Shown: positions 5,268 through 46,542 of the stretch, piece by piece
How the letters are laid out: the number at the start of each line of letters is the position of its first letter
How positions within the stretch are numbered: position 1 is the stretch's first letter
Assembly (NCBI GenBank): GCA_046563655.1
Contig: CM102284.1
Location: forward strand, 8,866,001-8,930,000
Reading direction: 5' to 3'
Length of the DNA: 64,000 bases
From: Yuukianura sp. NJ FZ-2021
Lineage: Eukaryota
Position numbers and translations under genes: made by a program
Notes under the pieces: model-generated
Told to the model about the DNA's origin: nothing
The model's input: only the letters and a program-made list of their open reading frames with translations
Databases searched by the model: none

Positions 5268-8200
5268 TTACGATCCGCACATGACGCAGTCCTGGATCAC
5301 AAAAACATAAAATTCGTGAGACATTTCATAAAAATTGAATTCAAAATTACGAAAATGAATGTAAAATAATCGTTGAAGTTAACTTTTTTGACTCACATCT
5401 TTATTTTGAAGAGAGCAAGTCATTCCAGCCATGTTAGTCTCCTCCACTGTTACATTCAACTTGGATTTGTCAACGGTGAACTGAATCGCTGCAGCGGCTG
5501 GCTTCGTCCGCAAGTAGTACATTCCTGTCTTCAATCCCTGAAACAACAAAAAACCTCCAGTTTAACATTGCAAACTAACTTTCAAAAACTACAAATCCAA
5601 AATGACTCCAATTTCATACTTTTTTCCAAGCGTAGAAGTGCATGGACGTCAATTTGGCAAAGTTGGGCTGGGCAATGTGGATGTTAAGACTCTGTGATTG
5701 GTCAATAAAGGCACCGCGATCCGCCGCCATGTCAATCACCGCTCGCTGTGAAATTTCCCACACGGTCTTGTACAGTGCCTTGAGGTCATCTGGAATCTCA
5801 GGAATTCCCTGGACAGAACCATTGGCAGCGATCATCTTGTTCTTCATCGTGGAATCCCACAGGCCACGCTCTGTCAAATCTTTCAACAAGTGCGGATTCA
5901 CGACCTGGAAGAAAAAAAACACACATTTTTGCAATTTCAATTCAGTTTTGACAAAAATGTACCACAAAAGTTCTGTTTACCTGAAATTCTCCAGACAAAA
6001 CACGACGACTGTAGATATTTGAAGTGTAGGCTTCAACAGATTCGTTATTGCCCAAAATCTGAGCCGTGGAAGCCGTTGGCATTGGAGCCAGCAGAAGCGA
6101 GTTGCGAACTCCGTGCTTAGCTATTTCAGCTTTCAATTTAGCCCAATCCCAAAGATCCGTTGGAGTAACACCCCACATGTCATACTGCAAAATCTGCAAC
6201 AGACGAAACCAAAACATTCAAAAAAGAAGTTTCGAACCAAAATGCTAAAAAACTTTGAAGTTTCGACCCAAAATGCTGGAAAACTATCAAGTTTCGACCC
6301 AAAATGCTGGAAAACTATCAAGTTTCGACCCAAAATGCTGGAAAACTATCAAGTTTCGACCCAAAATGCTGGAAAACTATCAAGTTTCGACCCAAAATGC
6401 TGGAAAACTATCAAGTTTCGACCCAAAATGTTCAAGTTTCGACCCGATATGCTGGAAAACTTTCAAGTTTCGACCCAAAATGCTGGAAAACTTTCAAGTT
6501 TCGAACCGAAATGTTATGAAACTTTCAAGTTTTCTCCAAGTTGTCATATTGACATACCCCTTTGCTAACTGGCGATCCCTCATAAGTCTCGTACGGTCCA
6601 AGTTCAGCTGCCAGTTCCATACTTGCTTCCAGAGCACCGTGATAAATCGTCTCAAAAATCTGAATGTTGAGTTTTCTAGCTTTTTCAGAATCAAATGGAA
6701 ATCGCATGAGAATGAAAGCATCAGCCAATCCCTGCACGCCAATTCCAATTGGTCGGTGGCGCATGTTGGAACGTCTCGTTTCCGGAACCGGGTAGAAGTT
6801 TTCTTCAATGATTTTGTTCAGGTTGCGTGCAACGACTTTCGTAATTTGATGAAGTTTTTGGAAATCATATGTTTTGTCTGGTTTGACAAACATGTTGACA
6901 GCAATCGATGCCAAGTTGCAAACAGCAATCTGAAAATGAAAAAACAAGTTGAGATTAGCTAAAAAAAAGTACTCAATACTTTCAAATTCAATTCCTTCAG
7001 GGTAAAAAGTGTTTTTACCTCGTCGGGCGAAGAATATTCAACAATTTCGGTGCACAAGTTGGAACATTTGATTGTTCCCAAGTTTTGTTGATTGGATTTC
7101 CGGTTACAAGCGTCTTTGTACAGCATGTACGGAGTTCCTGTTTCAATTTGTGACTCAACAATTTGGTAAAACAGTTTCTGGGCTCGAACTTGTCTGCGGT
7201 AACGTCCTTCTTTTTCATATCTGAAAATAAAACCAACAATTTTACTCTAGTATCACCAAAACGAGTGTAAAATTATCAAAAATGTTAAAGTTATGAAAAC
7301 TCACTTGAGATACAATTCGTTGAACTTTTCACCCCAAACTTCAAAAAGTCCAGGACAGTCGTTGGGACACATCAAAGACCAATTTTCGTCTTTCTCTACT
7401 CGTTCCATGAACAAATCAGGAATCCACAATCCATAAAACAAGTCCCGAGCACGTTCCTCCTCTGATCCAGTATTTTTCTTCAAGTTCAGGAACTCAAAAA
7501 TATCGGCATGCCACGGTTCCAAGTAAATGGCGAAAGCACCAGGACGCTACAACACAAAAACATGCTTCAATTAACGTAAAACAAAGTAGAAATTGATAAT
7601 TACTTTGCTTTTTAGAGAAATCCTGACCTTGTTTCCACCTTGATCCACATACCGGGCTGTGTTATTGTAAACACGGAGCATCGGAACGAGTCCATTAGAG
7701 ACTCCATTGGTTCCTCCAATGTAAGATCCAGTTGCACGGATACAGTGCACGTTGAGTCCAATTCCACCAGCACTTTTGGAAATTACAGCACATTGTTTCA
7801 AAGTATCGTAAATCCCCTCGATTGAATCTGCTTTCATTGTTAGAAGGAAGCAGGATGACAACTGAGGATTGTTCGTAGCGGCATTGAACATCGTCGGAGA
7901 AGCATGAGTGAACCATCGCTAAAAATTGGAAATTCAATTCAATTTAACTTGTTAGTTGTTAAAAATTGTCAAGTGGTTTGGCTAAAAACTGACCTCGGAG
8001 AGTAAATTGTACGTCTCAATGGCACTGTCAATGTCCTCTCCATGAATTCCAACGGCCACTCGCATCAACATTTGCTGAGGTCGCTCCACCACTTTACCAT
8101 TGATCTTCAGAAGGTAAGAACGCTCCATCGTCTAAAAATCGTTCAAAATACGTCAATTGAGATGATATCAAGAGAAGCGTTAACTAATTAGTTTAGAATT

Positions 8201-38702: not shown

Positions 38703-39480
38703 TGAATAGAAAATGCATTGTCGAGGCTGGGGGGGCAAGCCCCCCCAGACCCCCCCCCCTGCTTCTGAGTTGAGATGGAATTTTTGGAAGTCTGTGCTTG
38801 GAGGAGTAATGGAAAAGGGACACCCCTGAATCTTTCCACTCTTCCACACAGAGAGTTCTTTGCACATATAGTTTGCATGGTGATGCTATTAACATTGGGA
38901 CGGAGCAACGCTCGTCAATTAGAGTATGATGAATGAGTTTCACGCCAGATGAAAAATTTGCATATCGAAATATAGAAAAATAAATATCAACCACTGAGGC
39001 TAGATTAATTTTATTTTTCAACAGGCGTCTTGAGTAACTCAAAATGAGAAATTTCACCTGCTTTGTTGGTATAAAAATTGAGAAACTTTGCGAAATCTCG
39101 CAATTTTTTTCACATATAAAGTCAAGGGCGAATTTCATTGTTCATATAAAATTCCCATAGGCTTAGCGAATTGAAATTGACGAACATGTTTGAGGTTTAA
39201 TTTAAAATTCACAAAAGCCAAAGCTTTCGCAATGTCAATGTCACAGTTGTTGCAAAATTTGGGAAACCCCAAAAAAGAAGCAGCCTGTTCCGTTTTATGT
39301 TGAATTTAAAAAAATTTGCATGTCTTTAATGGCCTTGTTGGAGCATTTGTAAATTTTTACTTCATTGTAAATGTTGCAACGCGTCGAATTTCATCTCTTT
39401 AAGCTGGACCAAAATTATCCGGAAATTGAAAATTGGGCAACTTATTTTTTTTTCTGTAAAAATAAATAGTAATTGAGCGG

Positions 39481-39650
39481 GAGATCGGTGGTATGTGTGT
39501 TTCCCACTAACCAGAGAGATGTGGGTTCGAGTCCCACCGTCCGAGGGGGGCGGCAGTTCCACTACACGCAGTCGGCAGTCCCTCCTCTTGCACGTAGCTT
39601 AAGCAAAAGCGACTGTGTGGCCTAAACAATACTATCGGCAAATTTTTTTT
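39481..39650 (+). ncRNA. Circularly permuted tRNA-like gene, unit 1
   Basis: 3' half first (T-arm GTGGG-TTCGAGT-CCCAC 39521-39537, acceptor 3' strand CGTCCGA), then 5' half (TTGCACG-TA-GCTT-AAGCAA-AAGC-G-ACTGT 39588-39616); terminal stem; T8 at 39643-39650. Confidence 0.72.
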
Positions 39651-39760
39651 CGTAATATTATATTAACAAAGTCAAAAAATATAAAACTAAAAGTATACTG
39701 CCCGAACCCTCCCAAAGAGAAATGTCTAAAAAAAATCCCTGAAAGTAGCGATGTTGGGGC

Positions 39761-39944
39761 TAGAGGTTGGTGGTATGCGTGTTTTCCACTAAGCAGGAAG
39801 ATGTGGGTTCGAGTCCCACCGTCCGAGGCCTTGGAGAGCCAGTGCCTATTCCGCAGAAACGGAATAGAGCCAGTGCCTCCTTTGTCTCGCACGTAGCTTA
39901 AGTAAAAGCGACTGTGTGGCCTAAACAAATGCCACCTTTTTTTT
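39761..39944 (+). ncRNA. Circularly permuted tRNA-like gene, unit 2
   Basis: CCAC-TAA-GCAGG-AAGAT-T-arm-CGTCCGAG (39786-39827); insert hairpin; TCGCACG-TA-D-arm-ACTGT-GTGG-CCT-AAAC (39887-39926); T8 at 39937-39944. Confidence 0.78.
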
Positions 39945-40040
39945 CGTAATATTATATTAACAAAGTCAAATATAAAGCTAAGAACCTGAAAAAAAAAGAA
40001 ATTCTTAAAAAATCGCTAAAAGTACGGATGTTAGGGGGAT

Positions 40041-40218
40041 AGATTGGTGGTATGCGTGTTTTCCACTAAGCAGGAGGATGTGGGTTCGAGTCCCACCGTC
40101 CGAGGCCTTGGAGAGTCAAAGCCTATTCCGAAAACGGCATAGAGTTCGTACCTCCTTTGTCTCGCACGTAGCTTAAGTAAAAGCGACTGTGTGGCCTAAA
40201 CACAGTCACCAGTTTTTT
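40041..40218 (+). ncRNA. Circularly permuted tRNA-like gene, unit 3
   Basis: Same scaffold: 3' half 40063-40104, 5' half 40162-40197; terminal stem ATTGGTGGT/GTCACCAGT; T6 at 40213-40218. Confidence 0.78.
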
Positions 40219-40392
40219 AATGATATTATAATTATAATAATATTTAAAAGTACATTAAAATTCTCACATCGAAATTGTTGTTCAAATTAACACAACAAAC
40301 GAAAAGTATTTTATGAAATGAAAATTTAAGCCTAAATTAACTAATTTAAGGAAAAGTTAGCTAAATCTTACACTTACGTGATTAGTTGAAAC

Positions 40393-42975
40393 TTAGTTTA
40401 AATTAATTAGATCCACCATGATGCTCTGCATGACTGCTTTGGGTAACTCGAACTCCGTTTCAGCTTCACTTCCAACATTTTCATCATCCACATTTTCCCG
40501 CGCCAGCGGTTCTGCTTCTGCGTTTTCCTTTTGACAATTCATTTCCTCTTGGGCCAAAATGTCGTCCACTTTGGTCAAATTCAGAACAGAAACTCCCAGT
40601 TCCGTCACGTCCGAACTTTCGATGTCTCCCAAAGTATCCATAGTTTCATTTCCAGTGTCAATGCTGACAGGTTCAACAGATGAAGTTGACATGTCAGTAA
40701 CGGATGTTGACATTTCAGTGACCAATGATGTTGACATGTCAGTACTTCGATTGAGTTGCATGGAAGTATTTTGGTCTTTAGTTTTCTCAATCGATTGCTC
40801 TCCAGTTGGAGCAACTGAAGTATCAGTTGGAATTGCGTTGTTCCTGCGTTCTCGTTTCTTCATGAATTCCACTCTGCCCAAATGTTTCCTTGATTTCAGG
40901 TGACGAGCGAATGAACTTGGATAATTTGATTTGAACTTGCAAGTATCGCAAGTTAGCAGGTCGTTTACGACAAGTGAAGTAGAAGTGGTCGCTTGAGGCT
41001 GAGGTCGTTCTGGTTGAAGATGAAACTTGAAGTCACATTTGGGACAAGTAATTTCTTTTCCGCCAATTCCTGGTCAAGGTAATCATCAATTAATTAGTTG
41101 GTCTGACATCAATTAATCATCAATTAGTAATTGAAATTGAAGGATTGAAGTTTTCAACAACTTACGGTGAGTTCGAACATGAGCGCGATATGTATTGTAG
41201 TCTGCAAACTCTTTTTTGCAAGTACGGCATACCATTGGTTCGCCTCCATTGGCATGTCGAATGTAAAAGTGTTTCCGGAGATTACTGTCGCTGACAAACT
41301 CCATTTGGCAGAGACGACATTTGTACGTTTTCTTCTTCTCCTTTTGATGTGCAGAGTCCATGTGACTTTGTCGTTCATCGAACGAATCAAAACGTCGTCG
41401 ACAGAATTTACAGCGGAGGTCATCGTGACCTTGTCCTTTTCCGTTGGCTAAAGTGTGACCTCTAGTCTGTGTTCCAACATTACGTTGATCATCGGTAGGA
41501 CCAGTTTCCATTTCAAGTGCGCTTTTCACCATGTGTGAAGCTGGAGAACGACTGACGTTGTTCGGCATGCTCATTTCAAATGTTCTGTCCACTTCCACAT
41601 TTCCAATGTCTCCAATCAGCGTTGAATTGGCCGCGGGGTGAAAGTCGCCGACTTTGCGATGAGGTCCCTGTTGAGCTTGTTGACCCTGAGAAGGCTCATT
41701 GCCAAGAACGCTGAAGGGATCACGACTTCGAGCTGAAAAGTTACACAAAAACCATAAACGTTCGACATAACTTAAAAGAAGTATGAGAAAGCAAAAGTTA
41801 GGCTTTACATTGATCGGTCGGCGTCTGATTTTTAGAAGGACTTTGACTAAGAAATCCATCGTCAACGGAATCCGAATCTAGAGAGCAAAAATCAGACCAA
41901 ATTGACGGTGACACTGTCAAACTAAACTGAAAGTATTGGCGTGGGCTTACCATCGTCTGACATGAATCTTCTCAAGTTTTCATTCAAGACGTCTTCGTTC
42001 AGGTCCCCAGACGGATACAACGAGTACTCAATTGCAGACGAGCCAACAGAGTTCAGCTGGACTCCAGCGCTGGTAGGACGCGATGAAGTGCTTTTGCTTT
42101 GTTGATGACTGACGTTTGTGTTCGGAGTTCCGGATGGACGGTTTGCTGTTTTCTGGCCAGAGTTGATAGGTGGATTTTGAGGTCGTGGAAAGTCTCCAGA
42201 CACAAAGACGCTGCCTTCTCTACCACGGTGGACCTGCATGAAAGTCGTTCCAGTTTTCTGCAATGCCGTGTTCACAGATTGACGCCCAATAGATGACAAT
42301 GGCGTAGAAGTACAGAAATTAGACTTGGTTAGACAAGATGAACCGATGGAGCTCGTGATGCCAGTGAAGGCTCCCACAGAAGATGAAGAAGGGCATGATG
42401 ACCGAATCGACGAGCATTCAGGTGTACTCGGAGTTTCTTCAATCAAACATTTGTCATTAGTGCCTTATTAGAATCAAAAATTCAATCCAAAACAGAATCC
42501 GAAAATTAAACTCCTTGACTTACCGTTGCAAATGATTTCAATAGAAATAGAACTGGGCAGTTTAGGTAACGTGTTCATCCTTTGATTGAGAATGTTGGAG
42601 CCGCTTTGTAGACCTGACGACGAACGTTGGCCAGAACTTGTAGCGGGTAACATCGGACGCGGAAACTCTTTACCCTTTGCTGTACCAGAATTCTTTCCAT
42701 TTTCATCAGACAAAGTCGTATCGCTCATAGCCGTCACATCTATGGCTTCCCGTGGAACATTTTGAATCAAGTCTACATCAACAAATGGAATTAGTAATCA
42801 CGTTCCGTTTGAAATAACATAGTACTTAGACTTACTAATGAATAAACTCACTTGTGATTCCATTGAGACATTCTCGTACTGTCGACAGTTTCGTTCTCAA
42901 ACGTTTGACTTCCGGAGGCTTGGATTCATCCAGCCCCGACGCCCCCATGACCTTGTTCTCCTTGTCAGGATCCAT
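40393..42975 (-). CDS. C2H2 zinc-finger protein, multi-exon
   Basis: First exon MDPDKENKVMG.. with GTGAGT donor; fingers CKFC..H..H, CRLC..H..H, CRTC..H..H, CPKC, CDTC..RH; acidic C-terminus. Confidence 0.8.
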
Positions 42976-44257
42976 TCCTCGCGATTCCAGAAATGACAAT
43001 TGATGAGAGAAACCGGATTTTGCGTAAAACTGAAAGTCACCTTGACGCTGACCAAGATGTCACATCCAGCCGCACAGTGGGGCAGAATCAAAAATAACAC
43101 GCCACGGTTGTTAGGGGAAACGTTAAATGAAATTTAGAAATTACATTGAAATTGAATGCCAAAATCGGGATTCAGAAAGATCGAAATCCCGAAAAATCCC
43201 GGTAACCGAATGTCAATCTGGAGGTTGGAATAAAAACTACACACCGTCACGTAACAAGTCCGAGCACGACTTCTTGCGGTTTTTTCAATTTTGCATTTTT
43301 AATTGATTTTTCAATTTGGAATAAAATTGTGGCTATGGGGGGTAATTAATACCACCAATTAAGAAATTTTAAAACTCGAATTGTGATAAAACAGCTACAA
43401 ATTTCATAAAAATTTCATTAATGAATACAAAATACAAAATGTACTTTTTATGTCTCAACTTTTGAATTTGACATAGCGGGAATACCGGTATTTTGAATAC
43501 CTTTTGTGTTGCAGTAAGGTTTAACGAGTGTAATTGTACCCGCTCAGTATAGACTTATGTGGCATAGCTAGAATGTGCTAATTAATTATTAAATGAATTT
43601 AGGTAATTAAAAAACAATTAAGCCCAGATGTTGTCACGTGGTGCAACTATTGAAAGCAAGATGCAAAGTTACCTAACCGGGTGGAAACAATGACTATCGA
43701 TAAACCTTGCCTCAACCAAATTCTCACTTTTTCTCAGATTTTCAGAAATCATTGACTGAACAAGAGGACTTCTTTGTTGTTGTTGGCGAAACTTCATTTA
43801 TCGGTAAGTTAATTAGTTAATTATGTAAGTTTAGTTTAAGTTTTAGGTTGATTATAGGTTTAGGGTTTAGTATTCAGGTTGAACAGGACGAAAGCTGACG
43901 ACATGGATCCATCTACGAAGACATCATCATCATGCTCTACAACAACTGCAAAAACGCCAAACTTGAGTTAAATTGATTGAAATTTATATTTTCATTTTGA
44001 TTCATATATTCATTGCATTGAAAAGTCACTAATCTTTTAACAGGTTTTTTTGTGGGAATTAATGAAACGGGTCATGCCAAAATTTTTTTTGAAAACTATG
44101 GGGGGGAAACTTTTGCAACTATTCTTATGTTGGGAAAGTGTTGCAAAATGTCTGACATTATCAATATCAAAATATAAATGAAAGATTTATGTTTTTATAG
44201 ATTCTTGTTTCAAATTAAAATTCGTTATATGTCAATTGGTTATATTCTTATTTGCAG

Positions 44258-46542
44258 ATGGCGCTGAAATGGTCAGACTTGATAATGCTGCGAAACATGG
44301 GCAACCATTACTTGGACGAAGGCTTAGAGGTCGTGAAGAGCCACATCAAAAGAAAATTGACAGATTTGGAAGTGAAGGACTTGCGAAAATTGATTGGAAC
44401 ATGGCAATACCACTACAACAAAAAATGGAAACAGACAACTGTGGCAAGAAAAATGTCAAAATTTCTCGAAAAAGAAGCTGTTTGGCTTGAGAAAACTGTC
44501 GAAATTCCGCAGCGATTTCGTCAACAAGAAAAATTAGAAGTAACCGGCTCATCGGTTAGGTCCTCACAGCGTCTTGTTGCCAAGGTTTCAAATCAACAGA
44601 AAGAAACACCGCAAGTCCTCCTTAAGGCTACTGCCAGAACCATTGCCACCACAGGAACTCCAAAAAGCAGGTTTAAAGCTAAAGTCCTGAAAGAACTGGC
44701 CAAACAACCATCATCTGCTGAAACAATGTGGACCTCTTACAAACGACCACCAAGGAAACCTCGAAGGAACTTGACTCCAGAAGAAGCCCTTAAGCTGCTA
44801 CTAGAATTGAACTTGACTAGAGCAAACTACGATACCCTTAGACAAGTTACGAATGATCTGGGTCACGAGAACTTGTTTCCGTCCTACAAGAAAGTCCAAG
44901 TTGCAAAATTGGCTTGCCGCCCAGATGGCGTTGCTGTTGAGGAGAGGGAAGTCAGCGTTCCACTCCAGAATTTATTGGACCATACTTGTGGAAGAATAGT
45001 TGCAATGAACAAGGATGGAATTGTTGACCACGTTAGATCATCTCAGCAAAACACAATGGACGCGGAAATGATTGTCACTTGGGGGTTAGATGGAGCTGGA
45101 GGACAGTCTCGGTACAAACAGAAAGGTGTTGAAGAAGGATATGTCGAAGAAACGCACTTGTTGACAACTTCACTCATTCCGTTGCATCTGCAGGCATCTA
45201 ATGGCCAAGTTTACTGGAGTAACCCTACACCTCAATCACCTAACTTCTGTCGGTCACTCAAGGTTCAATTTGTCAAGGAGTCCAAGGAGATTGTATTGAA
45301 GGAACGAGACCGTGTTCACTCTGAGATCCAGCAATTGGAACCCTATGTTGTAGACATTGGCGAAGGCGTAAAGTAAGACGATTACATTTCTCTCAATTGT
45401 ATTTTTTCTTTATATAACTTTGTTCCAGGCTCACAGTAAAGTTCAAATTGGTTCTGAGCTTAGTTGACGGGAAGGTCCTCAGCTATCTGACGGAATGTGA
45501 TAGCTCACAAAAGTGCCCTGTATGCCACGCCCGTCCTTCCGATTTCATTCGTCAAAATATCGGAAGTAATGTCTTCAGTCCAAAACCGGGTAGTTTGGAG
45601 CATGGGATAAGTCCACTTCACGCAACAATGCGAATATTCGAATGCTGCCTCCACATAGCCTACAAGCAACAGTTTAAACAATGGTAATTAATTGTTTACC
45701 GTACTTGTCTTGAAATTGAAGTTAGTACTTAGTTGTGTCTGTTTTTAGGCGTACATCTGCAGAAACTGTTGACGCTGTGAAAGCTAAAAAACGCCTAATT
45801 CAACAGCGTTTATTCAAAGAAATGGGCTTACTGGTTGACTTCCCAAAGACTGGGGGCGGGACAAGCAATGATGGTAACACAGCTAGGCGGGCTTTTGCTA
45901 ATCCTGAGAAGTTCTGTGAAATTATTGACTTTGACTTGGAGCTCTTCAAACTTCTTCGTAATGTGTTGCTTGCGTTGACCTGTCAGCTCCCAATAAATCC
46001 TGTTGAGTTTGGCAAGCTATGTCGTTCCGCCGCTGAACTTTACCACGACAAGTACGAGTGGTACAAGATGCCTCAAACTCTCCATAAAGTCCTCATTCAT
46101 GGAGAGGAAATTGTCAAACGAAGGTACTTCTTTACTTAAGCTTATTTTTAATCGTGTACATCTTTTAGTAATCATGTAATCAACTTTATCTAGCCCCTTG
46201 CCAGTGGGAATCCTTGGAGAAGATGCGCAGGAGAACAGACACAAATGGCTCCGTTATTTCCGTCTCCACCATTGTCAAAAGCATTCTCGGAAAAAGACCA
46301 ACGAAGATTTGTTCAACCGTTCCCTGGATACATCAGACCCTTTGCTTTCTTCTAATCGTTTGACGAAGCCTGTTAAACGCACCAACAGGTTGTCCCTTGC
46401 GGCAATCCAAAACATTTTGCAGGAGCCTGTTGTTTCCCGTCTGGAGGAACCACTTGAAAATGTTGGCCTGGGAGATGTCGATGATGATTTGTTCCTCTAT
46501 TTTGATGAAGATATACCTGTTGGATTAGAGTTAGATGTCTAG
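44258..46542 (+). CDS. Transib transposase (RAG1-core-like), 4 exons: 44258-45372, 45429-45683, 45749-46123, 46194-46542; 697 aa
   Basis: Exons join in frame with GT-AG introns; DDE motifs WGLDG, VDGK, EDAQENRHK; Zn ligands CPVC and LHKVLIHG; GGGTSNDGNTARRAF; SPLHA. Confidence 0.93.

Follow-up and report, generated by a model that had tools for sequence, protein, structure and literature searches.

Between positions 39,486 and 40,218 of the window (the whole 64-kb stretch of DNA that was analysed) lie three tandem units of the Pol III type, approximately 155-180 nt apiece, with a T-run at the end of each (Table 1). The order is the same in all three: leader, tRNA positions 38-73, spacer hairpin, tRNA positions 1-37, trailer and T-run. 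A search of the 64 kb for the conserved tRNA-like flanks gave exactly three occurrences, with zero expected from shuffles, and nhmmer did not find further copies of the two conserved halves in the window. The strings quoted for units 1 to 3 by a first-pass annotation of this DNA were all located in the window, at 39545-39587 (unit 1), 39833-39880 (unit 2) and 40110-40155 (unit 3).

AT-rich elements sit roughly 20-35 nt upstream of the units and may have a promoter role. The T8, T8 and T6 runs are located 9-14 nt past the h' strand of the trailers, while runs of at least four T are absent from the three spacers. Open reading frames at 36-44 kb are zinc-finger-like or without assignment. The host is a probable arthropod.

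At gathering thresholds Rfam gave no matches, and at E values up to 10 (39300-40400) it returned only noise, namely YrlA (16.6 bits), SNORA50 (18.4 bits) and tmRNA (13 bits), the last covering the T arm alone. Pattern scans for relatives had no match in metagenome contigs (two patterns) or in viral contigs. The sole match among genome contigs, a normal bacterial tRNA-Lys with another tRNA-like gene after it, was a false positive of a foreseeable kind and was discarded.

Table 1. Coordinates of the units and of their predicted parts (positions in the window)
Feature	Coordinates	Strand	Basis and remarks
Unit 1 AT-rich, TATA-like element	39457..39468	+	about 20-31 nt upstream of the terminal stem
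Unit 1 predicted transcript	39486..39650	+	terminal-stem 5' strand to T8 run; folding, sequence
Unit 1 BHB, leader side	39498-39510		same layout as unit 2
Unit 1 tRNA-like 3' half (positions 38-73)	39510..39545	+	anticodon stem 3' strand, variable loop, T arm, 3' acceptor strand, discriminator G (all units); ARAGORN on joined halves, pair table
Unit 1 spacer hairpin, 42 nt	39546..39587	+	with acceptor stem -20.4 kcal/mol, z -0.36
Unit 1 X, CGGCAGUUC plus an extra C	39551..39560	+	direct repeat
Unit 1 X', CGGCAGUCC	39573..39581	+	direct repeat
Unit 1 tRNA-like 5' half (positions 1-37)	39588..39622	+	5' acceptor strand, D arm, anticodon stem 5' strand, loop positions 32-37 (all units); ARAGORN on joined halves, pair table
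Unit 1 BHB, trailer side	39617-39628		same layout as unit 2
Unit 2 AT-rich counterpart, CTGAAAGTA	39739-39747		read from sequence
Unit 2 predicted transcript	39766..39944	+	to T8 run; folding, sequence
Unit 2 BHB, leader side	39780..39792	+	h' UGUUU, extra U, CCAC, bulge UAA; predicted cut 39791|39792
Unit 2 tRNA-like 3' half (positions 38-73)	39792..39827	+	ARAGORN on joined halves, pair table
Unit 2 spacer hairpin, 59 nt	39828..39886	+	with acceptor stem -33.8 kcal/mol, z -3.9; 1 of 300 shuffles
Unit 2 X, AGCCAGUGC	39837..39845	+	direct repeat
Unit 2 X', AGCCAGUGC	39868..39876	+	direct repeat
Unit 2 tRNA-like 5' half (positions 1-37)	39887..39921	+	ARAGORN on joined halves, pair table
Unit 2 BHB, trailer side	39916..39927	+	GUGG (positions 32-35), bulge CCU, h' AAACA; predicted cut 39921|39922
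Unit 3 AT-rich counterpart, CTAAAAGTA	40016-40024		read from sequence
Unit 3 predicted transcript	40044..40218	+	to T6 run; folding, sequence
Unit 3 BHB, leader side	40057-40069		same layout as unit 2
Unit 3 tRNA-like 3' half (positions 38-73)	40069..40104	+	ARAGORN on joined halves, pair table
Unit 3 spacer hairpin, 57 nt	40105..40161	+	with acceptor stem -26.1 kcal/mol, z -3.2; 1 of 300 shuffles
Unit 3 X, AGUCAAAGC	40114..40122	+	pair table
Unit 3 X', AGUUCGUAC	40143..40151	+	differs from X, still pairs with X
Unit 3 tRNA-like 5' half (positions 1-37)	40162..40196	+	ARAGORN on joined halves, pair table
Unit 3 BHB, trailer side	40191-40202		same layout as unit 2

The tRNA-like body and its predicted joint

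ARAGORN called no tRNA on the native 64-kb window and, once the two halves of each unit had been joined in silico at 37/38, a 71-nt tRNA (positions 1 to 71) in all three units; none of the three native-order units and none of 900 shuffles was called. Shifted joints were also accepted as long as the loop stayed at 7 nt (in unit 1, 6 of 49, all on the equal-shift diagonal), so that the ARAGORN test checks the loop length and not the exact cut. The T stem, the D stem and six of the seven acceptor pairs are common to the three units, and the body carries the canonical tRNA features U8, A14, A21, G26, U33, G53-C61 and a canonical T loop. Non-decoding features are found in the same body: a C4.C69 mismatch in all three units, A27.G43 (A.A in unit 1), a D loop AAGUAA without GG (no G18G19), G32, C37 and the anticodon GGC. 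The joined product does not carry the invariant features of a decoding cytosolic tRNA, and in place of the alanine identity pair G3:U70 it has G3-C70. To our knowledge, eukaryotes decode alanine codons through AGC/IGC, CGC and UGC anticodons and not through GGC. Between units 2 and 3 only one of 99 positions in the tRNA-like halves differs, versus 14% substitutions in the spacer and 16% with 23 gap columns in the intergenic flank, and the conserved body gives way abruptly to the diverged spacer and flank.

[quoted passage not shown] The element consists of a 4-bp helix H (CCAC/GUGG) between 3-nt bulges UAA and CCU, and it is flanked by an anticodon-stem analogue on one side and by a 5-bp outer helix, h', on the other. 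Opposite the distal bulge stands an additional base (U or C), and thus the BHB is relaxed and not strict. The leaders of all three units read ..GGUGGUAUG(U/C)GUGUUU.., and the trailers differ in sequence from unit to unit, yet each of them pairs with the conserved leader. In unit 2 the permuted cloverleaf with the BHB is the MFE structure (-66.4 kcal/mol, z -3.8, with none of 200 shuffles as stable), in unit 1 it lies only 0.4 kcal/mol above the MFE, and in unit 3 it lies 5.6 kcal/mol above an MFE structure that uses a competing trailer hairpin. The anticodon-stem analogue of unit 1 has three pairs only. By rough arithmetic, the 9-bp complement behind the non-cloverleaf MFE of unit 1 is at chance level for its length and was set aside. 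It had been proposed that the tRNA fold could serve to circularise the RNA, a proposal with which the predicted BHB of leader and trailer, placed exactly at 37/38, would agree.

The spacer hairpin and its twin segments

The segment that the first-pass annotation regarded as a "cargo" hairpin is, according to the folding models, the intervening sequence of permuted tRNA-like genes, and it folds back on itself. As had been claimed, the hairpin joins the 3' end of the tRNA to its 5' start and prolongs the acceptor helix. It stacks on the 7-bp acceptor stem with no unpaired base between, G73 pairs with the base preceding tRNA position 1 (the -1 base), and this pair is followed by three more unbroken pairs in units 2 and 3 or by six in unit 1. 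Since the spacer is stacked directly on the acceptor, the acceptor arm is a rod, closed and irregular, that counts about 33 rungs in units 2 and 3. The hairpin of unit 1 with its acceptor stem is no better than shuffles, 103 of 300 being as stable. It was reported that pairing between the leader and the 3' end that lengthens the acceptor stem inhibits bacterial RNase P (PMC9433436), and that the M. smegmatis YrlA RNA, with a closed 7-bp acceptor, is still cleaved by RNase P and receives CCA (available text of PMC4201824).

Within each spacer lie two segments, X and X', of a steady length of 9 nt, once 10 nt. Their pair table was built by coordinates because a MAFFT alignment of the three spacers misplaced X' of unit 1. 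The duplication previously noted in units 1 and 2 was recovered in a repeat search, with 9 of 10 nt identical in unit 1 (39551-39560 and 39573-39582) and 13 of 13 in unit 2 (39835-39847 and 39866-39878). The same search found no direct repeat of the segments in unit 3, in which both the twin identity and the CAGU core are lost. The segments had been described as free loops of 9-10 nt, a description that the partition function of units 2 and 3 contradicts, as pairing (P unpaired 0-0.2) takes up the two outermost positions at either side of each segment and leaves open only the central 3-4 nt plus a single bulged base on each strand. The twin segments are instead predicted to pair with each other, forming a two-fold symmetric element made up of one bulged base, the outer pairs G2-C9' and S3-K8', a 4x4 core CAGU/CAGU, and then the mirror image.

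Units 2 and 3 differ at none of 20 lower-stem, one of 16 upper-stem and seven of 18 twin positions, so for this pair the earlier picture of a constant scaffold with exchanged loops stands. It breaks down between units 1 and 2, which have different stems and apical hairpins but share the core G-S-CAGU-K-C on both strands. All seven of the differences between units 2 and 3 fit X:X' pairing under one register: four of them make up two compensatory pairs (C-G to U-A and G-C to A-U), one leads to a wobble pair and two fall at unpaired positions. The second compensatory pair, at the loop centre, is register-dependent, and RNAfold favours a different register there. At X3:X'8 unit 1 has G-C, unit 2 has C-G and unit 3 has U-A, and a paralogue has U-G there in organism A and U-A in organism B; in its upper stem this paralogue also shows a compensatory change, from A-U to G-C. 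The units are likewise kept in the second organism. With only four unit versions and one orthologue the symmetry argument rests on few events, and constraint can be imitated by gene conversion within a tandem array. Five of the six strands of unit 1, unit 2 and the paralogue carry the CAGU core, the sixth reading CAGC, and because the core persists in units whose scaffolds are very different it is not a variable guide. The complementarity of the loops to targets that had been envisaged did not rise above chance when the window was searched: save for one, the reverse complements of the six 9-10-mers had no exact site in the window beyond the segments, and the one extra site, which matches X' of unit 3, is within chance expectation (0.49).

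Several other identities were considered for the spacer and rejected. A second BHB would not fit strands of 9 nt instead of 7, in which a 4-bp helix with 3-nt bulges could not be drawn, and a kink-turn or sheared tandem G.A was dismissed with the order here being 5'-AG/3'-GA. The CAGUGC of an iron-responsive element is present but is internal and not apical, and a hammerhead or other ribozyme had no Rfam match. A micro-transposon with 9-bp target duplications would need independent insertions into the same loop in two lineages, while a hairpin "correction" by template switching would have made X' the reverse complement of X and not its copy. Pairing of the CAGU core with ACUG at tRNA positions 27-30 was found, by rough arithmetic, to be at chance level.

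Relation to permuted tRNA genes and tRNA-mimicking RNAs

In the available text of PMC3978253, PMC13578239 and PMC4501094, the reported cases of permuted tRNA genes are confined to a few algae, a nucleomorph and a single archaeon, PMC3978253 naming Cyanidioschyzon merolae, prasinophyte green algae, the Bigelowiella nucleomorph and Thermofilum pendens. Among the matches listed, full-text literature searches returned no permuted tRNA gene from an animal, and the permuted tRNA-like layout in a probable animal is the surprising part of this locus. Like the permuted genes described in PMC3978253, the units have the 3' half upstream of the 5' half, a leader and trailer that form a BHB, and an intervening sequence that joins the acceptor ends (42-59 nt here, 1-74 nt in the known genes). 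Their junction at 37/38 is of type II, the commonest type of green algae, and the upstream AT-rich element and downstream T-run are shared with algal permuted genes, as far as these are set out in the same source. Unlike the known permuted genes, the units belong to a probable arthropod, have a non-canonical body (C4.C69, no G18G19, G32, C37, GGC), and bear on the acceptor a long stacked helix whose symmetric core is conserved.

The predicted joint was also compared with substrates of the fly endonuclease, for which a proximal bulge of 3 nt and a distance of 6 nt between the proximal pair and the 5' exon end were described (available text of PMC6614914). In all three units the bulge UAA is 3 nt and G32 to C37 is 6 nt, as in the fly, whereas the proximal pair is G32-C here and C-G in 16 of 16 fly intron-containing tRNAs in that source. 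TSEN and RtcB, the enzymes of tRNA intronic circular RNAs and engineered tRNA scaffolds (PMC6614914, PMC4536317, in their available text), are those predicted to act here; what lies between the cuts would be a tRNA-like body with its hairpin, in contrast to the intron of metazoan tRNA intronic circular RNAs.

In bacterial YrlA RNAs a T arm, a closed acceptor stem-loop and a D arm stand in this order, with an anticodon-like stem made from the 5' and 3' ends (10.1101/312249, available text). The units share this order, with the anticodon-like stem running into a long terminal stem (10.1101/312249, PMC4201824). They differ from YrlA in being eukaryotic Pol III-type genes, in having a BHB in the terminal stem, and in their far longer acceptor arm. 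The Ro60/Rsr-binding motifs GNCGAAN0-1G or, in vertebrates, GGUCCGA, as given in the available text of PMC4201824, are absent from the leaders of all three units.

Candidate products of the units

Judging from the predicted folds, the chances are about even that the locus holds three tandem circularly permuted tRNA-like genes, whose RNA is circularised through the BHB and retains the hairpin as a symmetric binding platform. The tRNA splicing endonuclease would cut the BHB at 37|38 and RtcB ligase would seal C37 to A38, giving a circle of 113-130 nt with a tRNA-shaped body. The hairpin would remain within the circular RNA and keep the acceptor end closed, which would probably limit the access of RNase P and RNase Z, and with the acceptor end closed by the hairpin no CCA end and no charging would be expected. 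The symmetric CAGU/CAGU element might then be a platform for a dimeric or two-fold symmetric partner and not an antisense guide.

The units could also be true permuted tRNA genes, as in Cyanidioschyzon and Ostreococcus, with a disposable spacer that is removed after circularisation or even earlier, trimming by RNase P and RNase Z, addition of CCA, and a working 71-nt GGC tRNA. Every sequence-level feature of permuted tRNA genes is indeed present, as are a standard 7-bp acceptor stem with a discriminator base and the canonical residues (U8, A14, A21, G26, U33, G53-C61) and T loop; the body is much better conserved than the spacer, and RNase P opens even the closed acceptor of the M. smegmatis YrlA (PMC4201824, available text). 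We consider true tRNA genes unlikely nonetheless, given C4.C69 in all three units, the lack of G18G19, G at 32 and C at 37, a helix that runs on through G73 and the -1 base, and a spacer structure, kept by compensatory changes and with a symmetric core, for which a throw-away linker has no need. The absence of G3:U70 and the GGC anticodon, which as far as we know is not used for alanine in eukaryotes, point the same way. A functionless, decaying tandem array of ordinary and possibly intron-containing tRNA genes, similar to each other only through gene conversion, would accommodate the variable copy number of the array (contigs skip 291-336 nt), the partly degraded appearance of unit 1, and the ACGGATG at 40024-40030, upstream of unit 3, which could pair with the 3' acceptor strand at six of seven positions like a relic 5' strand. 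Read across units, a 5' half and the next 3' half would then give a tRNA with an insert at 37/38 of 169 nt (units 1 and 2) or 147 nt (units 2 and 3). Such an array is nevertheless very unlikely, as a T6-T8 terminator falls within every supposed intron, the three 3' and three 5' halves stand in permuted order with no orphan-completing halves nearby, the conservation of the body ends sharply at the spacer and flank, compensatory changes are found in the trailers and spacer stems, and the units are kept in a second organism.

Other alternatives concern the hairpin and the uncut RNA. Release of hairpins by RNase Z and RNase P is known from the tRNA-linked miRNAs of murine gammaherpesvirus 68, and a pre-miRNA-like hairpin beside a tRNA-like fold would be expected to measure roughly 55-70 nt, with some 22 bp in its stem. 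In units 2 and 3 the spacers (59 and 57 nt, about 26 rungs, small symmetric internal loops) would suit a product of this kind, freed by RNase Z and RNase P with a 5' phosphate and 3' hydroxyl and without Drosha; the spacer of unit 1, however, is too short (42 nt, about 17 rungs), the predicted 3' overhang is 1 nt and the extended acceptor helix disfavours both cuts, which makes this product highly improbable. It is also conceivable, although decidedly unlikely, that the RNA stays linear and uncut as a Y-RNA-like particle, its terminal stem binding Ro60 or another protein and its tRNA-like module recruiting an effector. The architecture equals that of YrlA, and of the two strands of the terminal stem the 5' one is conserved and the 3' one variable, in line with Ro60 reading mainly the 5' strand (10.1101/312249, available text). 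YrlA (RF02553) is also the top whole-unit Rfam alignment, for unit 1 only, but with a score of 16.6 bits against a gathering threshold of 69 (E = 2.4); both binding motifs are missing from the leader, and a linear Y RNA has no use for a BHB of such exact geometry at 37/38. Extremely improbable, finally, is the guide RNA favoured by the first-pass annotation, in which the 9-10 nt segments would be single-stranded, variable and pair with a bipartite or repeated target from a tRNA scaffold. The constant segment length, the near-identical stems of units 2 and 3 beside seven differences in 18 segment positions, and the central 3-4 nt predicted to be open in each segment are in its favour, and the hairpin shares with H/ACA guides the succession of lower stem, internal region (about 9 + 9 nt), upper stem and apical loop. 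The outer positions, on the other hand, pair and co-vary with the opposite segment, and the CAGU core is the same on five of six strands (unit 1, unit 2, paralogue). Unlike those of H/ACA guides, the two strands pair mutually and are identical instead of being complementary to two flanks of a target, and two identical guides cannot clasp one contiguous target in the way that a pseudouridylation pocket does. An ACA box 14-16 nt 3' of the pocket is missing, the Rfam H/ACA match is noise (SNORA50, 18.4 bits versus a gathering threshold of 90), no recombinase or nuclease gene is found among the open reading frames at 36-44 kb, and the window has no reverse-complement site above chance.

If the units are circularly permuted tRNA-like genes with a retained hairpin, they would represent a natural substrate of the permuted kind for animal tRNA splicing enzymes, a new class of small and possibly circular Pol III RNA in animals, and a testable eukaryotic parallel to bacterial tRNA-mimicking Y RNAs. 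A further step, which we put forward only tentatively, is that they belong to an arthropod gene family for natural circular tRNA mimics, made by Pol III, in which a rod with the CAGU/CAGU element replaces the chargeable acceptor end; if true, these would be a eukaryotic counterpart of bacterial YrlA RNAs and would give the engineered tRNA scaffolds for circular RNA expression a precedent in nature. The hairpin itself should be handled as a structured arm that bears a symmetric recognition element, and not mined for antisense targets. A decoy that carries a pair of protein-binding sites, also named as a candidate in the first-pass annotation, would with identical sites come close to the single two-fold symmetric site favoured here.

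A tandem array of permuted tRNA-like genes

The array consists of three direct units (table below). Two blocks recur in it, one of 26 nt that covers the T arm and 3' acceptor strand and one of 38 nt that takes in the 5' acceptor strand, the D arm and what follows; both are present in exactly three copies in the 64 kb and not at all in shuffles; nhmmer profiles of both blocks found no further copies in the window. From 5' to 3', the leader of a unit is followed by the 3' strand of an anticodon-stem analogue, a variable loop of 5 nt and a canonical T arm (GUGGG-UUCGAGU-CCCAC). Next come the 3' acceptor strand, CGUCCGA, and its discriminator G, then the spacer, and then the 5' acceptor strand, which reads UCGCACG, or UUGCACG in unit 1. 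UA leads into the D arm (GCUU-AAGUAA-AAGC; the unit 1 loop is AAGCAA), after which come G, ACUGU and the trailer. A run of 6-8 T closes each unit, and an AT-rich, TATA-like stretch lies about 20-35 nt upstream of its first conserved base. Units 1 to 3 are circularly permuted tRNA-like genes.

Positions of the array and of other features in the window
Feature	Positions	Remark
Array	39480-40220	+ strand
Unit 1	39486-39650	spacer 39546-39587, 42 nt
Unit 2	39766-39944	spacer 39828-39886, 59 nt
Unit 3	40044-40218	spacer 40105-40161, 57 nt
Near-palindrome TCCGAGGCCTTGGA, unit 2	39822-39835	14 nt
Near-palindrome TCCGAGGCCTTGGA, unit 3	40099-40112	14 nt
CACGCAGUC, unit 1 spacer	39563-39573	9-nt complementarity
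tRNA-like positions 26-34, unit 1	39611-39619	
ACGGATG	40024-40030	upstream of unit 3
AGCGATG	39747-39753	unit 2 counterpart
Contig joints skipping array DNA	39545>39882, 39650>39953, 39678>39970	contigs against window; within 39545-39970
Divergence points of copies with other flanks	39783, 39921/40196, 39925	
Overlapping repeat frames	6023-6962	+ strand
385-aa open frame	44219-45376	+ strand

In unit 2 the permuted cloverleaf is the minimum free energy (MFE) fold (z -3.8, with 0/200 shuffles folding as well), and a second folding run agreed. The cloverleaf lies 0.4 kcal/mol above the MFE in unit 1, and 5.6 kcal/mol above it in unit 3, where the MFE uses a competing trailer hairpin. The non-cloverleaf MFE of unit 1 arises from pairing of a spacer stretch, CACGCAGUC, with tRNA-like positions 26-34, a 9-nt complementarity that by rough arithmetic is at chance level for such a length.

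ARAGORN found no tRNA in the window as it stands, and Rfam gave no match there at gathering thresholds. When the halves (positions 38-73 and 1-37) were joined in silico at 37/38, ARAGORN called a tRNA over positions 1 to 71 of the resulting 71-mers in all three units, as Ala-GGC in units 2 and 3 and as Gly-GCC, in an alternative register, in unit 1. None of 900 shuffled 71-mers and none of the three units in native order were called. Six of 49 shifted joints of unit 1 were also called, every one on the equal-shift diagonal that keeps the loop at 7 nt; the test therefore confirms the geometry and not the exact cut. ACGGATG, which lies upstream of unit 3, could form 6/7 pairs with the 3' acceptor strand, while the unit 2 counterpart pairs at only 4/7. 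The former may be a relic 5' acceptor strand of an ancestral gene of standard order, as expected if permuted genes originate by tandem duplication.

Contigs from the DNA runs jump 291-336 nt of window sequence, so the array is also present with fewer units in the sampled organism. Copies with other flanks were seen outside the window as well, indicating that the family is larger than these three units.

Bulge-helix-bulge and conservation between units

Leader and trailer form a bulge-helix-bulge (BHB) with a 3-nt leader-side bulge (UAA), a 4-bp central helix (CCAC/GUGG), a 3-nt trailer-side bulge (CCU) with one extra base opposite, and a 5-bp outer helix (UGUUU/AAACA); the anticodon-stem analogue holds 4/5 pairs in units 2 and 3 and 3/5 in unit 1. 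Canonical cuts, between bulge bases 2 and 3, would place the junction exactly at tRNA position 37/38 and leave a 7-nt loop, GUGGCCA. In flies the endonuclease rules call for a proximal bulge of 3 nt and for 6 nt counted from the proximal pair to the 5' exon end (PMC6614914), and both are matched here; the proximal pair is G-C in these units, in contrast to C-G in 16/16 fly genes (PMC6614914). The leader strand is nearly constant, whereas the trailers diverge (AUACUAUCG, AUGCCACC, UCACCAG), each still pairing with its own leader. A copy at the end of an 11.4-kb contig has the leader ..GGUGGUAC.. and the trailer ..UACCACC, again complementary, and in another copy the trailer diverges immediately after GGCC.

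Units 2 and 3 have tRNA-like halves that differ at 1/99 positions; over 59 nt their spacers show 8 substitutions (14%) and 2 gaps, compared with 16% substitutions and 23 gap columns in the intergenic flank. A fourth version of the unit was found by comparing contigs of four DNA sequencing runs, from two organisms, with the region. In organism A this paralogue is flanked differently and lies on an 11.4-kb contig; in organism B, which also carries the family, its contig is 105 nt long. It was rebuilt by hand from a difference table that is complete for 40113-40153 and covers only differences at least ~32 nt from a contig end, and is provisional.

The spacer hairpin and its twin segments

The spacer is the intervening sequence of the permuted gene, and it was correctly noted in the first-pass annotation that its hairpin extends the acceptor stem: G73 pairs with the base preceding position 1 and the helix then runs unbroken. 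Beyond this pair, the hairpins of units 2 and 3 continue with three pairs and a 3x3 pyrimidine loop, then GGAG/CUCC and the twin region, and end in an upper stem of 8 bp with an apical loop of 4-6 nt; in unit 1 six pairs lead to the twin region, which is capped by a stem of 3 bp and a loop of 6 nt. Hairpin and acceptor stem together were matched in stability by 1/300 shuffles each in units 2 and 3 (z -3.9 and -3.2), while those of unit 1 were no more stable than shuffles (z -0.36, 103/300). The near-palindrome TCCGAGGCCTTGGA straddles the boundary between 3' acceptor strand and spacer, and could allow an alternative local fold or dimer formation.

The twin segments, one on each spacer strand, had been described as duplicated loops of 9-10 nt. 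They are real direct repeats, identical at 13/13 nt in unit 2 and 9/10 in unit 1; as loops they have to be redescribed, since in the partition function for units 2 and 3 each 9-mer has its two outer positions per side paired with the opposite segment (P unpaired 0-0.2), and only a bulged first base and the central 3-4 nt stay open. The predicted pairs are 2:9', 3:8', 8:3' and 9:2' (primes denoting the second segment), and the positions they enclose, 4-7, are CAGU on either strand of units 1 and 2. Pair 3:8' is G-C in unit 1, C-G in unit 2 and U-A in unit 3; in the paralogue, whose segments are UGUCAGCGC and UGUCAGUGC, it is U-A in organism B (8' = A) and U.G in organism A. The upper stem of the paralogue, CUGUUCCG/CGGAACAG, carries a compensatory A-U to G-C change relative to unit 2. 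Under one register all 7 differences among the 18 twin positions of units 2 and 3 are compatible with pairing: four make up two compensatory pairs (C-G to U-A, and G-C to A-U, the latter depending on the chosen centre register, where RNAfold prefers another), one gives a G.U wobble and two fall at unpaired positions. By these folding models, the twin segments pair with each other.

It had also been proposed that a constant scaffold carries variable loops. This holds between units 2 and 3, where the spacer differences lie in the twin segments (7/18) and the apical loop, and the lower and upper stems differ at 0/20 and 1/16 positions; it fails for unit 1, whose stems and apical hairpin are wholly unlike those of the other two while it shares the core with unit 2. 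Of the six core strands in units 1, 2 and the paralogue, five read CAGU and one CAGC. The element is two-fold symmetric: where versions differ, both strands show the change, position 1 being A/A, C/C or U/U, and pair 3:8' and its mirror pair flip together. Base pairing by itself does not demand such mirroring, which with four versions is suggestive, not proven. In unit 3 the symmetry is broken and the pairs are kept. The twins had been read as bipartite guide elements, or as a decoy carrying two protein-binding sites. The guide reading is not supported, as the strands pair together, the CAGU core is conserved, and the units lack the unpaired strands and the boxes of guide-RNA families; a symmetric element would better suit a dimeric or two-fold symmetric binding partner.

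Known families and the predicted RNA

At the level of sequence, every feature of permuted tRNA genes is present. The definition of such genes in PMC3978253 includes a junction of type II, at 37/38, intervening sequences 1-74 nt long (42-59 nt here), an upstream TATA-like element and a downstream T-stretch, all found in these units. In the relevant portions of PMC3978253, PMC13578239 and PMC4501094 they are named only for algae, a nucleomorph and archaea, and none of the literature matches listed described permuted tRNA or tRNA-like genes from animals. The units share the architecture of bacterial YrlA, as outlined in 10.1101/312249, and fall outside that family: unit 1 scores 16.6 bits against an Rfam gathering score of 69, and the Ro60-binding motif is absent from the units.

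Canonical decoding features are likewise lacking. A C4.C69 mismatch occurs in 3/3 units, unit 1 has A.A at positions 27/43 where units 2 and 3 have A.G, the D loop, of 6 nt, has no GG dinucleotide, position 32 is G, position 37 is C, and G3 is paired with C70, not U70. Eukaryotes are not known to use a GGC anticodon for alanine. The body is not a standard decoding tRNA.

Sequence and folding show the permuted layout, BHB geometry, closed extended acceptor helix, twin pairing and conservation pattern; beyond these, a pathway can be proposed. Pol III would transcribe the unit from the upstream element, the tRNA splicing endonuclease would then cut the transcript, and RtcB would seal the product into a circle of 113-130 nt in which the hairpin would be retained. 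Cutting and sealing into circles have been demonstrated for algal permuted pre-tRNAs (PMC3978253) and fly tRNA introns (PMC6614914); the G-C proximal pair weighs against such processing. Retention of the hairpin is favored in the predicted RNA because the discriminator lies inside the helix, structure and a sequence core are preserved in the spacer, and the body would be a poor decoding tRNA. Pairing that extends the acceptor helix through the discriminator is reported to inhibit bacterial RNase P (PMC9433436). Against retention, YrlA of M. smegmatis, whose 7-bp acceptor stem is closed, is cut by RNase P and given CCA (PMC4201824). The first-pass observation was largely right, and the hairpin becomes the acceptor-closing arm of a permuted tRNA-like RNA; it is this predicted RNA that is the notable item.

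A Candidatus Paceibacterota MAG contig (682-890) carries an ordinary tRNA-Lys(UUU) followed by a second copy-like sequence, with insertions in the D-arm and T-arm regions and no ARAGORN call; it is unrelated to the units. Eukaryotic open reading frames surround the array and encode C2H2 zinc fingers, part of the large subunit of ribonucleotide reductase and a Spot_14 domain. The host is probably an arthropod, since the nearest protein-atlas cluster of the Spot_14 frame, Mid1-interacting protein 1, has Arthropoda as its commonest phylum, with a score of 0.94. Two overlapping frames with a tandemly repeated peptide-like unit point to a tandem DNA repeat adjoining a ribonucleotide reductase exon of the opposite strand. 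The 385-aa frame may represent a mobile-element gene that is domesticated or in decay; its only match, to DUF1280, is sub-threshold (E = 0.0011; 19.1 bits, cutoff 25).
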